Source: Trichlorobacter lovleyi SZ
Lineage (GTDB): Bacteria > Desulfobacterota > Desulfuromonadia > Geobacterales > Pseudopelobacteraceae
Assembly: GCF_000020385.1 (NCBI RefSeq)
Contig: NC_010814.1
Coordinates: forward strand, 2,070,001 to 2,102,000
Reading direction: 5' to 3'
DNA length: 32,000 bases
Below, piece by piece: positions 3,843 through 31,716 of the stretch. Both the position numbers and the translations under genes were made by a program. The notes under the pieces are model-generated. The model was not told the origin of the DNA. It did not search any database and worked only from the letters and a program-made list of their open reading frames with translations. Each line of letters starts with the position of its first letter. Positions within the stretch are counted from its first letter, which is position 1.

Positions 3843-3871
3843 AATGGGGAGACCGATTCGGCCTCCCCATT
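3843..3871. terminator. strong hairpin between convergent metG and the HesB-like gene; probably a bidirectional terminator
   Basis: aatggggag / ctccccatt form a 9-bp GC-rich stem with an inner ccg/cgg extension. On the minus strand the hairpin is followed by TTCTGTTTG. There is no clear T-run on the plus side. Confidence 0.55.
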
Positions 3872-3898: not shown

Positions 3899-4186
3899 CT
3901 ATGAGCAGGAAGAACCAAACTCAGGAGAAATTACAAAACCTTCTCGCATGCCTGAATTAACAAAATCAATCACCTGACCATCCAGGAAAGAGTTCAGGCT
4001 TTTTTCTGCAAGCAGCTCAATGCCGTTCAAAGTCATCCTGGTATCATTTTCACCCGGCTCATCCAGAGCCAGCCCCAGACGGGGGCCACCTCAACCAAAA
4101 CCTTCAAACACCACCCGCAGCAGCTTGCCGGGGTTCTGGGCCAGAATCGGCTCCAGAGCTGTCTTTGCCGCATCTGTAATCTTCAT
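3899..4186 (-). CDS. HesB/IscA-like small protein with in-frame TGA (candidate selenocysteine) at codon 32
   Basis: ATG 4186 lies 7 nt after AGGAG. The translation is MKITDAAKTALEPILAQNPGKLLRVVFEGFG[TGA 4093..4091]GGPRLGLALDEPGENDTRMTLNGIELLAEKSLNSFLDGQVIDFVNSGMREGFVISPEFGSSCS, ending at TAG 3901..3899, 96 codons in one frame. The TGA sits where Cys-containing HesB-like homologues have GFGCGG. The gene is absent from the ORF track, which only shows the antisense shadow 4020..4220. Confidence 0.7.
4056..4087 (-). promoter_or_regulatory. candidate SECIS region: two adjacent hairpins just 3' of the in-frame UGA
   Basis: In the minus-strand RNA, GGCCCC-(C)GUCU-GGGGCU spans 4087..4071 and GGCUC-UGGAU-GAGCC spans 4070..4056. 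The second loop is G-containing and lies about 26-30 nt after the UGA, within the spacing range usual for bacterial SECIS elements. Confidence 0.45.
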
Positions 4187-4205
4187 GACGCCGCTCCTTT
4201 GTAAG

Positions 4206-4223
4206 TATTCATATATTTGAATA
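4206..4223. promoter_or_regulatory. palindrome TATTCA-N6-TGAATA immediately upstream of the HesB-like gene's RBS
   Basis: Read on the minus strand: TATTCAaatataTGAATActtACAAAGGAGcggcgtcATG. The same ATTCA-N6-TGAAT plus ACAAAGGAG arrangement recurs at 29460..29484. Confidence 0.5.
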
Positions 4224-28483: not shown

Positions 28484-29368
28484 TTACCGGCTTCTCTTTA
28501 CCATTGCCATAAACTCCAGCGCAGCCGGTGACAGGCTCTTGCCACGACGCCAGGCCAGATAAAAACTGCGATTAATCGTAAGCCCGCTGACCGTCAACTC
28601 GATAAGCGTTCCATCCGCCAGTTCATGCCCCACGGCAAGGGTGGATACAAAAGCTGCTCCTGCCCCGCTTAATACCGCACGACGAACTGCCTCACTGCTG
28701 CCAAGCTGGGCAACCACCCGCAGCCGGCGCGGATCTATACCGTTTTTCTGAAGCGCGCTATCTACTGCCGTACGGGTGCCCGAACCAGCTTCACGAATTA
28801 CCAACGGCAGCTGCGCGAGCTGATTGTACTCAAGAATGCCAACGGGGCTCAGACCGGGTCTGGCAACCAGAACGATCCGTTCGGTCATTACCTCCTGCAT
28901 ATTGATGCTGTCATCATCAATATGACCACCCACCACAGCCAGCTCAACCCGTTCATCCTGCAACAGCCTTATCACCTCATGGGTGTCTCCCTGCTGTAGT
29001 TCAAGGCGGACACCGGGCCAGGCAGTGCTGAAATGGCCCAGCATATCAGGAATTAAAAAGGCAGCCGGAATGGTACTGGCCCCTACCCGCAAGGTTGCCT
29101 GCTCAAGTCCCTGAAAGCGCCTGACCGCCTCAACAGCCTCACTACAATGCCGGCAGATCCCGGCTGCATGGTCATAAAAGAGCCGCCCGACCTCAGTCAA
29201 CGCAACCTGGCTTGCCGAACGATCAAAGAGGCGCACATTCAATTCATCTTCCAATGCCCGAATGTGCTGGCTCGCAGTGGATTGGGCCAGGCTGACGGCT
29301 TCACCTCCTTTTGAAAAACTGCGCGTATCGGCTACGGCCAGAAATACTTCCAACTGTTTCAATGTCAT
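28484..29368 (-). CDS. LysR-family transcriptional regulator
   Basis: The N-terminal wHTH MTLKQLEVFLAVADTRSFSKGGEAVSLAQSTASQHIRALEDELNVRLFDR is followed by a LysR substrate-binding domain. ATG 29368 with a GGTGG SD is preferred over the track's upstream TTG at 29392. It is divergent from the rhodanese operon. Confidence 0.88.
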   Translation of the reverse strand: MTLKQLEVFLAVADTRSFSKGGEAVSLAQSTASQHIRALEDELNVRLFDRSASQVALTEVGRLFYDHAAGICRHCSEAVEAVRRFQGLEQATLRVGASTIPAAFLIPDMLGHFSTAWPGVRLELQQGDTHEVIRLLQDERVELAVVGGHIDDDSINMQEVMTERIVLVARPGLSPVGILEYNQLAQLPLVIREAGSGTRTAVDSALQKNGIDPRRLRVVAQLGSSEAVRRAVLSGAGAAFVSTLAVGHELADGTLIELTVSGLTINRSFYLAWRRGKSLSPAALEFMAMVKRSR

Positions 29369-29459
29369 AGGGCCACCTATCCAAATAATCAATTTATTCT
29401 AACGCTTTTCTACCAGATTATCTATTTGCCAGGCAAGCATACAAATTGGTATCAAATAC

Positions 29460-29492: not shown

Positions 29493-29909
29493 ATGTTAAA
29501 AAAAATTGCCCTGTTTTTTGTTCTCAGCATTGCCTCTGCCACGGTTGCCCTGGCTGCCAATTATATTGAACCACAGGAGTTGAAAGAGCTTTTTGACAAG
29601 AAAAAGCCGGTTATTCTGGTGGATATCCAACCTGCAACTGATTTTGAGGTGCAGCACCTGCCCGGTTCAATTGAAACCAACGCCTTTCCGGCCAAGACAG
29701 ATGAAGATAAGGCACGTCTGGATAAGGCGTTGACCGTCATTAAGGCATCAAAAGACCCGGTTGTGGTGGTCTGCCCCCGTGGTAAATCAGGTGCCAAAAA
29801 CAGCTACCAGTACCTTGAATCAAAAGGCGTGCCTGAAGACCGGATGCAGATTCTGGAGGGTGGCATTGCAGAATGGCCCTTCAAAGAGCTGTTTGTAAAA
29901 GGCCGTTAA
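29493..29909 (+). CDS. exported single-domain rhodanese-like sulfurtransferase
   Basis: 138 aa. Signal peptide MLKKIALFFVLSIASATVALA. Rhodanese fold with the active-site loop VVVCPRGKSG. Confidence 0.8.
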   Translation: MLKKIALFFVLSIASATVALAANYIEPQELKELFDKKKPVILVDIQPATDFEVQHLPGSIETNAFPAKTDEDKARLDKALTVIKASKDPVVVVCPRGKSGAKNSYQYLESKGVPEDRMQILEGGIAEWPFKELFVKGR

Positions 29910-29944: not shown

Positions 29945-30988
29945 ATGGCAGATATGGCTGCCAACTGCACCTCCTGCGGTGAATGTGTGCGCCCCTGCAG
30001 CTTTCTGCAGCACCAGGGCACTCCATTAACAATAGCGCAACAGGGGGCAACCGACCGCAACCTGCTTGCTGCCTATGGCTGTTCCTTATGCGGCCTGTGC
30101 GATGCTGTCTGCCCGGAGGGACTCTCACCTTCCGATATGCTGCTTGGCATGCGTCAGGAAGCGGCAACACGCGGCTTGACGGATCTGAAAAAATACGCAC
30201 CCTGGCTCAACTATGAGAAGCTGGGGGCATCCCTGTTCTTCCGGCGGGATCTGATCCCGACCGGTTGCACCACCGTTTTTTTCCCGGGCTGTTCTTTACC
30301 CGGCACCAGACCGGATGCAGTGCTAGAGCTGTTCAAGCGTCTGCGCCTGATGGAACCAACCGCCGGCCTGGTTCTGGATTGCTGTGGTAAGATATCCCAT
30401 GACCTGGGATTAACAGACCATTTCACCGCGCTCTTTGGACGGTTGTCAAAACGGTTACGGCACAAAGGTATCACCCGTATTCTCACCGCCTGCCCCGGCT
30501 GCAGCAAGATTCTGCGTAACCATGGAGAAGAGTTTGATGTTACCAGTATCTATGAGGTGCTTGCTGCATGCACCGCACCCTCACGTCCTGCTTCTCCACT
30601 CAAAGTCGTGACCATCCATGATCCCTGTCCGGCCCGGTTTGATCCGGCACAGCAAGCCGCTGTCCGGCAACTGGTACAATCTTGCGGGTACCGTATTGAA
30701 GAACTGCCCTCCCACGGAACAACCACCCGCTGTTGTGGCCAGGGAGGTATGGTGGAAGGCTGCGTGACCAGTACCATCAAGCAGGAATCCGGGGTTATTG
30801 CTGCCGAAGCTGCCGGTCGCCCGGTTATTTCCTCTTGTGCATCCTGCAGTGATAGCATTACAACAGCAACACCGGCAGGCCATGTTGTTGACCTGTTGTT
30901 CAGTAAGACCGATTTTTCTGCTAAACCGGTCTCATCGGCCAGACGCTGGTTGAACCGTCTTAAACTGAGATGTGCGAGACTGACATGA
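29945..30988 (+). CDS. (Fe-S)-binding oxidoreductase subunit: 2x[4Fe-4S] ferredoxin motifs plus two CCG domains (HdrD/GlcF/LutA-like)
   Basis: CTSCGECVRPC and CSLCGLCDAVCP are followed by FFPGCSLPG...LDCCGK and IHDPCPARF...RCCGQGG. I prefer ATG 29945 (MADMAAN...) to the track's 29873 start, which overlaps the rhodanese gene by 37 nt. Confidence 0.8.
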   Translation: MADMAANCTSCGECVRPCSFLQHQGTPLTIAQQGATDRNLLAAYGCSLCGLCDAVCPEGLSPSDMLLGMRQEAATRGLTDLKKYAPWLNYEKLGASLFFRRDLIPTGCTTVFFPGCSLPGTRPDAVLELFKRLRLMEPTAGLVLDCCGKISHDLGLTDHFTALFGRLSKRLRHKGITRILTACPGCSKILRNHGEEFDVTSIYEVLAACTAPSRPASPLKVVTIHDPCPARFDPAQQAAVRQLVQSCGYRIEELPSHGTTTRCCGQGGMVEGCVTSTIKQESGVIAAEAAGRPVISSCASCSDSITTATPAGHVVDLLFSKTDFSAKPVSSARRWLNRLKLRCARLT

Positions 30989-31716
30989 ACATTCAACCAT
31001 TTTCAAGACACTTCAGGCTTCAAAAACTGGTCTTATGTTTAGTCTGGGAATCCTTTCCTTCCTCTGTAGTTCTGCGGCTCTGTGTTGCAATTTTGTTTTG
31101 CTTTGCATTTTTTTGTGTGGAGCCGGCCTTGGCAGACGAAGTCGCCATATCCCGCTTTGCAACAGAAGGACTCAAGGGCTGGGAGTCCAAGAGTTTCAAA
31201 GGCAGCACTGACTACACACTGGTGCAGGAAAACGGTCGCACCGTACTGAAGGCCCATGCCAAATCAGCTGCATCAGGCCTGTCAAAAAAGATTGCATTTC
31301 AACCTGCTACCTACCGCTATCTCAAGTGGAGCTGGAAAATATCCAATACCATTGCTCAGGGCAATGAAAAGAGCAAACAGGGTGATGACTATGCTGCCCG
31401 GGTCTATGTCGTCTTTCCAGGCCGGTTCTTCTGGCAGATGCGAGCCTTAAACTACATCTGGGCCAACAAACTGCCCAAAGGCGAATTTGTCCCCAACGCC
31501 TTTACCTCCAATGCCATGCTGATTGCAGTCGAATCCGGGCCGTCAAAAGCAGGACAGTGGGTTGCTGAAGAACGTGATATCCTGGCTGATTTTCGCCGTG
31601 TGTTTGGCGAAGAGCCGCACGAAGCAGGCGCCATTGCAATCATGACTGATACCGACAATACCGGTGCAGAGGCCACTGCCTGGTACGGAGATATCATCCT
31701 CTCGACAAACCGCTGA
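30985..31716 (+). CDS. DUF3047 domain protein with an N-terminal signal/anchor
   Basis: [16 protein letters not shown]...[17 protein letters not shown]...LKWSWKI...[14 protein letters not shown] matches the DUF3047 pattern. ATG 30985 overlaps the upstream TGA (ATGA). Confidence 0.75.

Follow-up and report, generated by a model that had tools for sequence, protein, structure and literature searches.

The 32,000-nt stretch of the Trichlorobacter lovleyi SZ chromosome analysed here (NC_010814.1, positions 2,070,001 to 2,102,000; hereafter the window, within which all coordinates are given) carries on its minus strand, at 4186..3899, a small gene interrupted by one in-frame TGA. We conclude, with a probability of about 0.9, that it is a functional gene encoding a HesB-like selenoprotein with the IscA/HesB fold, in which selenocysteine (Sec) would be inserted at codon 32 and the second of two hairpins located just behind the UGA would recruit SelB. 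Indeed, the sequence reads as a single frame of 96 codons with one internal TGA and a terminal TAG (Table 1), and the conceptual product of 95 residues is MKITDAAKTALEPILAQNPGKLLRVVFEGFG-U-GGPRLGLALDEPGENDTRMTLNGIELLAEKSLNSFLDGQVIDFVNSGMREGFVISPEFGSSCS. The organism is the former Geobacter lovleyi, today assigned to Trichlorobacter, to which its closest named relative also belongs.

A first-pass annotation of the window had already proposed such a gene. It described a minus-strand open reading frame (ORF) with a Shine-Dalgarno sequence, 96 codons and a single TGA at 4093..4091 within VVFEGFG-*-GGPRLGLALDEP, placed two hairpins at 4087..4071 and 4070..4056, expected GFGCGG in the Cys-containing relatives and attributed the product to the HesB-like selenoproteins. 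The layout and both hairpins were recovered at precisely these positions, the Cys motif was encountered in a natural homologue, and the attribution holds, with selenocysteine as the most likely residue at codon 32.

Orthologues, family and fold

The comparison covered 49 sequences: the window itself, 18 loci taken from one genome per GTDB species and 30 metagenome loci, the metagenome scan being queried with an alignment of four close family sequences. The 18 species-level loci all belong to Geobacteraceae and include Trichlorobacter thiogenes ATCC BAA-34 (TGA gene on contig NZ_FUWR01000014) as well as metagenome-assembled genomes of Trichlorobacter and Geobacter. The metagenome loci share 46-98% identity, and the Trichlorobacter-, Geobacter- and Desulfuromonas-type orthologues overall span 46-100% amino acid identity. 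Codon 32 is TGA, with an intact frame, in 18/18 species representatives and in 29/30 metagenome relatives, that is, in 48 of the 49 sequences once the window is counted. Frame disruptions or unrelated residues at codon 32, which the first-pass annotation had named as grounds for abandoning the idea, were found in none of the orthologues examined.

The remaining sequence, L043 (metagenome contig Ga0182239_1005621, 1501-1800), belongs to the Desulfuromonas-type clade and is a natural Cys form with TGT at codon 32, reading AGFG-C-GGPSLGLTLDES and thus carrying AGFGCGGPS. Its hairpins are nearly intact, hairpin 1 having CCU in place of CCC and hairpin 2 being unaltered, which suggests a recent Sec-to-Cys conversion. 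A distant Cys form, P0028 (ENA scaffold, L055:324-650; 37% identity), reads PGG-C-GGPRLGLALDEP, with the same peptide after Cys, so that Cys falls at exactly the aligned codon in both proteins.

HesB-like proteins have been recognized as a bacterial selenoprotein family with 11 members (Zhang et al., 2006, PMC1794560), and the supplement of Peng et al. (2016, PMC5029168) counts 90 proteins in 86 organisms; their signature is given as UxGP in a 2026 review (PMC13188914). The G. sulfurreducens member (PMC1794560, supplementary file 4) matches the window protein with 57% identity over 94 amino acids (E 3e-41). Both proteins have 95 amino acids, with an identical core LRVVFEGFG-U-GGPRLGL.LDEP, Sec at the same codon and a C-terminal Cys, while the C-terminal halves have diverged (EGLVFRRESGDVCC versus EGFVISPEFGSSCS). 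Residue 40 is Val in G. sulfurreducens, not Ala, from which a C:G pair of hairpin 2 would be predicted to become U:G, as in L036 and L037. Judged by sequence, the window gene is the orthologue of this published selenoprotein gene. The HesB-like selenoprotein of D. acetoxidans is also similar, with 49% identity over 79 amino acids (E 5e-27). Homology, an in-frame UGA at the conserved Cys position within UxGP and an aligned Sec/Cys pair (L043, P0028), the sequence features of the family, are thus found here.

Other members differ in several respects. The Desulfovibrio-type IscA/HesB selenoprotein has the same fold family, Sec at the same position and the UxGP motif, but reads U-S-G-P where the window protein reads U-G-G-P, and it bears a long Cys/Gly-rich tail which the window protein lacks. 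For the M. maripaludis HesB-like protein MMJJ_08070, likened here by its family name, selenium incorporation has been verified by mutagenesis and 75Se labelling, the only such case in the surveyed literature (PMC11097638); its SECIS (Sec insertion sequence) is of the archaeal type, generally located in an untranslated region, in contrast with the coding-region element described below. The family and its Geobacter orthologue have been known and published since 2004-2006, and the window gene is a further, unannotated member. What is added here is only mildly novel, namely a tandem-hairpin architecture with RNA-driven amino acid covariation, together with an annotation gap.

Regarding the protein itself, with U read as C it passes the Pfam model PF01521 (Fe-S_biosyn) marginally, at 28.5 bits against a gathering threshold of 26.3. 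Alignment to PDB sequences retrieves E. coli IscA (E about 1e-6); residue 32 pairs with Cys35 in its TSG-C-SG motif, while C94 falls in the C-terminal Cys region. A structure model was built with AlphaFold2 on P0001, which is 97% identical and has W at position 32; its mean confidence (pLDDT) is 82, and Foldseek matches it to IscA 1r94 with a TM score of 0.81 (E 4.6e-7) as well as to SufA, [2Fe-2S]-IscA and DsrR. Across the IscA/SufA/ErpA structures (PDB 1r94, 1s98, 2d2a, 1x0g), the fold is the same (TM 0.78-0.81) at 25-28% identity, with two differences: the first ligand Cys is replaced by Sec, and the C-terminal C-G-C pair is down to a single Cys (GSSC-x). C94 is the sole invariant Cys of the C-terminal end, where GSSC precedes S, A, C or the stop codon, and it sits in a low-confidence tail of the model.

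The three invariant ligand cysteines of A-type carriers are C35 and C99-x-C101 in E. coli IscA numbering. Set against these three, the window protein has a Sec codon for the first ligand and only C94 in place of the C-terminal C-x-C; it thus departs from the canonical A-type carriers, although a dimer of it may function in a similar way. Sec32 would occupy the first cluster-ligand position (Cys35 in IscA), and Cys94, on its flexible tail, could complete the active site with Sec32, probably across the dimer. The most likely arrangement is a homodimer with one of two activities: Sec32 and Cys94 would bind iron or an Fe-S cluster and pass it on, or they would cyclically form a selenenylsulfide. 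Having Sec in the place of an Fe-S ligand is of chemical interest.

The tandem hairpins downstream of the UGA

The two hairpins jointly form the minimum free energy (MFE) structure of the segment from the UGA to +40 (-19.9 kcal/mol; the combined energy of hairpins 1 and 2 is -18.3 to -19.9 kcal/mol). In the published model of the bacterial SECIS (bSECIS), the apical loop has 3-9 nt and the upper stem 4-16 bp, the MFE is at most -7.5 kcal/mol, one of the two leading loop nucleotides is a G, mostly as G[G|U], and the loop lies 16-37 nt from the UGA (PMC13188914, Fig. 2A). Hairpin 2 agrees with this model on all four counts: its loop has 5 nt and its stem 5 bp, 25 nt separate the UGA from the loop, and its energy of -7.6 kcal/mol is, taken alone, only just sufficient. 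The loop, U-G-G-A-U, begins at +26 with G-G at loop positions 2-3, and it is UGGAY in all 44 distinct sequences of the set.

Codon usage points in the same direction. Codons 40-43 (GCU CUG GAU GAG) each occur as one codon wherever the amino acid is present, and this single-codon usage, 4/4 here, is seen in only 4/64 codons outside 33-44 (Fisher p = 8.6e-5). Leu41 is never UUG, whereas both CUG and UUG are used for Leu37 and Leu39, and the synonymous divergence pS is 0.30 in codons 33-45 versus 0.48 and 0.61 elsewhere.

Pairing across the 44 distinct sequences is equally constrained. In the two-hairpin model 96.7% of the cells are paired, versus 24-52% in slid controls, with 13 compensatory cells, and none of 500 shuffles matches the observed pairing or covariation; in hairpin 2 alone, 99.5% of the cells are paired. 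At the second pair of hairpin 2, 32 sequences have G:C and 12 have A:U, intermediates being absent, and the switch appears in the protein as Ala40/Pro44 versus Thr40/Ser44. On a tree built with codons 32-45 masked, the A:U state occupies two separate lineages, one being the Desulfuromonas-type clade and the other L018, which branches within the G:C sequences; this gives at least two independent switches. In hairpin 1, the CCC/GGG core pairs are invariant and the loop positions vary at synonymous sites; its pair +6:+18 is U-G in 13, U-A in 12, C-G in 4 and G-C in 1 of the 44 sequences, and unpaired in 14.

We thus propose selenocysteine as the reading of the UGA at 4093..4091, with the stem-loop 4070..4056 (5 bp, UGGAU) acting as a bSECIS that would bring the complex of SelB, GTP and Sec-tRNA(Sec) to a ribosome paused at the UGA. 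Hairpin 1 (4087..4071) would fill the spacer between the UGA and this element, either as a conserved spacer or as an auxiliary helix. As in E. coli fdhF and the bSECIS consensus, the proposed element is a coding-region stem-loop 3' of the UGA, but it consists of two short adjacent hairpins, whereas the consensus and fdhF have one long stem with a bulge, beginning at the UGA. Since the SECIS lies within the coding region, the codons of L-A-L-D-E-P are frozen, and the element would force the paired amino acid changes between Ala40/Pro44 and Thr40/Ser44. The gene may in this respect serve as a clear illustration of how a SECIS within coding sequence fixes synonymous sites and imposes coupled amino acid replacements.

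A bolder extension appears unlikely to us, though it deserves to be set out: hairpins 1 and 2 could constitute a bipartite recoding element in which hairpin 1 is required and stacks on the SelB-binding hairpin 2. The two would then represent a SECIS class of their own, common to the HesB-like genes of Geobacter and Desulfuromonas type, and this RNA would also dictate the Ala40/Pro44 to Thr40/Ser44 switch. Separately, Sec together with a single tail Cys could mean a Se-ligated cluster or Se-relay chemistry, not carrier function.

Long-range stems enclosing the UGA, suggested by an RNAalifold consensus, were rejected, as they show 0 compensatory changes and do no better than shuffles. Rfam yielded no relevant family, either in a gathering-threshold scan of the window or in a permissive scan of the gene, the latter producing a chance match to a long noncoding RNA (E 4.6).

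Competing explanations and public gene calls

Several observations weigh against the assignment as a selenoprotein gene and have to be considered together. The folding energy of the region is no better than that of dinucleotide shuffles (z = -0.41; 61/200 fold as well); stability alone therefore proves nothing, and the support for the hairpins is comparative. The covariation in turn concerns two pairs only and coincides with amino acid changes, so that co-evolution at the protein level could also account for it. The Cys form P0028, a control expected to lack the hairpins, keeps 4/5 bp of hairpin 2 (GCUC-UGGAU-GAGC), its hairpin 1 being eroded; this core may be a fossil SECIS, or the nucleotide conservation may partly have another cause. 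The situation resembles one noted by Zhang et al. (2006, PMC1794560) in a figure legend, where SECIS-like structures are described for Cys-containing homologues that evolved from Sec-containing ones. At the protein level, the canonical C-x-C motif is lacking and a function as Fe-S carrier is uncertain. The protein also scores 65.1 with NCBIfam NF038090 (IscA_HesB_Se; cut-off 85) and 37 with TIGR01911 (HesB_rel_seleno; cut-off 66.35), which places it outside both model-defined subfamilies. The same holds for 4/5 published HesB-like selenoproteins tested, which fall below both cut-offs (NF038090 scores of 36.5 for G. sulfurreducens, 68 for D. acetoxidans, 59.8 for D. hafniense and 65.5 for A. 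metalliredigenes, all below 85), only D. vulgaris passing NF038090 (113.9). Finally, selA, selB, selC, selD and tRNA-Sec were not found within the 32-kb window or the flanks retrieved, and ARAGORN detected no tRNA-Sec in the window or in the 18 orthologue loci.

The alternative that survives best, although we consider it improbable, is that the UGA is read through without Sec, by near-cognate decoding as Trp or Cys or under another recoding signal, with the hairpins as a stimulator only. The Sec machinery is indeed not visible within the window, and the sequence by itself does not tell which residue is inserted. However, the site corresponds to the ligand Cys of the fold, with alternation of Sec and Cys among homologues, and the geometry of hairpin 2 and its G-G loop fit the SelB-type bSECIS model. 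The Geobacter orthologue is moreover among the published selenoproteins, the supplement of Peng et al. (2016, PMC5029168) assigns 12 selenoproteins to Geobacter lovleyi SZ, and the window contains a selenium-associated regulator, a LysR protein at 28484..29392 (minus strand) that passes NF040786 ('selenium metabolism-associated LysR family') with 269 against 250 bits.

Translation beyond the TGA is supported by selection. Over 19 species-level sequences, the ratio of nonsynonymous to synonymous divergence (pN/pS) is 0.10 in codons 1-31, 0.17 in codons 33-45 and 0.25 in codons 46-93; the codons downstream of the TGA are under purifying selection and therefore translated. It is thus very improbable that the gene is a decayed pseudogene with a genuine premature stop, from which only a 31-amino-acid N-terminal peptide would be made while the rest is an untranslated remnant. 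Gene callers do report exactly such a stub (31-amino-acid calls on six Logan contigs, and ORF 4091..4186 in the window), but the 63 downstream codons stay in the same frame as the first half in 49/49 sequences, down to 46% identity, with the pN/pS values given above, and the two halves jointly form one IscA fold, in agreement with the first-pass annotation, which had argued from the shared frame and single domain against decay.

Equally improbable is a pair of small genes, one for the 31-amino-acid peptide and one for an ORF of ~45-59 amino acids started independently after the TGA, even if databases hold 57-59-amino-acid 'proteins' with TTG, CTG or ATG starts at that place (P0005-P0025). These downstream starts are inconsistent between orthologues, the first ATG in the window being codon 51; codons 33-50, where the protein is most conserved, contain no Shine-Dalgarno sequence, and the Cys forms L043 and P0028 are continuous single ORFs. 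An alternative genetic code reading TGA as Trp or Gly (table 4 or 25) has a negligible chance: P0001-P0004 do read GFGWGGPR in a public protein collection, but TGA is an ordinary stop in 13/28 other well-supported window genes, including holB, recG and fbp, which excludes such a code, and the organisms are Geobacteraceae, which use the standard genetic code.

Public protein sets (P0001-P0027 in the collection examined) render the gene in three wrong forms. The first-pass annotation had stated that automated callers miss it and show only an antisense frame, and the ORF listing at default length does contain only 4020..4220 on the plus strand, while a listing of shorter ORFs gives the halves as pieces of 31 and 45 amino acids. 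On six contigs identical to the window, the Logan calls consist of the 31-amino-acid stub only, N-terminal stubs of this kind ending in FEGFG. P0001-P0004 (ENA) span the whole protein but have Trp in place of Sec, apparently called with code 4; this W at position 32 is a gene-caller artefact on short contigs. The C-terminal fragments P0005-P0025 start just after the TGA; JGI lists some of them as 'Fe-S cluster assembly iron-binding protein IscA', and one NCBI-sourced cluster contains a 57-amino-acid fragment, P0019. Pipelines still miss this subgroup probably because the NCBIfam cut-offs exclude it, its published founding members included; it would be recovered with adjusted cut-offs or with a model built for the subfamily. 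The main value of the present analysis hence lies in annotation, as it concerns a conserved, real gene that is miscalled publicly across Trichlorobacter, Geobacter and Desulfuromonas-type genomes.

Genomic neighbourhood and gene ends

Upstream of the gene lies ppnP, and metG is convergent with it; the wider neighbourhood consists of holB-ricT-metG on one side and of recG and a lipopolysaccharide/exopolysaccharide (LPS/EPS) cluster on the other. This synteny (ppnP upstream, metG convergent) is kept only within the close clade. The window shares 84.5% nucleotide identity over 7.7 kb with T. thiogenes and at best 91% with a metagenome contig. No conserved operon partner other than ppnP and metG was seen, and the genomic context gives no functional clue. 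At the far end of the window, the genes around the selenium-associated LysR regulator (Table 1) contain no in-frame TGA.

Table 1. Coordinates of the candidate selenoprotein gene, its RNA elements and the genes near the selenium-associated regulator
Feature	Position	Strand	Basis or remark
Shine-Dalgarno sequence AAAGGAG	4200..4194	minus	7-nt spacer to ATG 4186..4184; read from sequence
Coding sequence part 1, codons 1-31, MKITDAAKTALEPILAQNPGKLLRVVFEGFG	4094..4186	minus	Translation; pN/pS 0.10 (19 species-level orthologues)
In-frame UGA, codon 32, candidate Sec codon, motif U-G-G-P	4091..4093	minus	TGA in 48/49 orthologues; aligns with IscA Cys35
Coding sequence part 2, codons 33-95, GGPRLGLALDEP...GSSCS	3902..4090	minus	Same frame as part 1 in all orthologues
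C94, only invariant Cys	3907..3905	minus	Orthologue alignment
Stop codon TAG, true gene end	3899..3901	minus	Translation
Hairpin 1, +4..+20 after UGA, GGCCCC-CGUCU-GGGGCU	4071..4087	minus	-10.0 kcal/mol; putative conserved spacer or auxiliary helix
Hairpin 2, +21..+35 after UGA, GGCUC-UGGAU-GAGCC, proposed SelB-binding bSECIS	4056..4070	minus	Apical loop 4065..4061; -7.6 kcal/mol
Imperfect GC-rich hairpin GGGGAGGCCGAATCGGTCTCCCC, then U-rich tail AUUUCUGUUU, likely terminator	3846..3868	minus	Between convergent metG and this gene
Secreted rhodanese-domain protein (CPRGKSG)	29493..29909	plus	Divergent from LysR
CCG-type dicluster Fe-S protein	~29950..30988	plus	Divergent from LysR; sub-threshold 'diclust_near_Sec' match, 208 vs 530 bits
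Secreted protein without assigned family	30970..31716	plus	Divergent from LysR
Start of Cys-form MsrA (GGCFWC)	31.75 kb to window end	plus	Divergent from LysR

The likely terminator at 3846..3868 was not called by a simple terminator scan because its stem has one mismatch; comparable hairpins lie 3' of the stop codons of the orthologues. The gene ends themselves vary. In L036, L039 and L041 the gene ends Cys-TGA where others end Cys-Cys/Ser/Ala-stop; in L039 this terminal TGA is directly followed by TAG, and L017 ends Cys-TAA. A role of the terminal TGA of L036, L039 and L041 as a second Sec codon was considered and rejected, as terminator hairpins with U-tracts follow and these codons look like ordinary stops.

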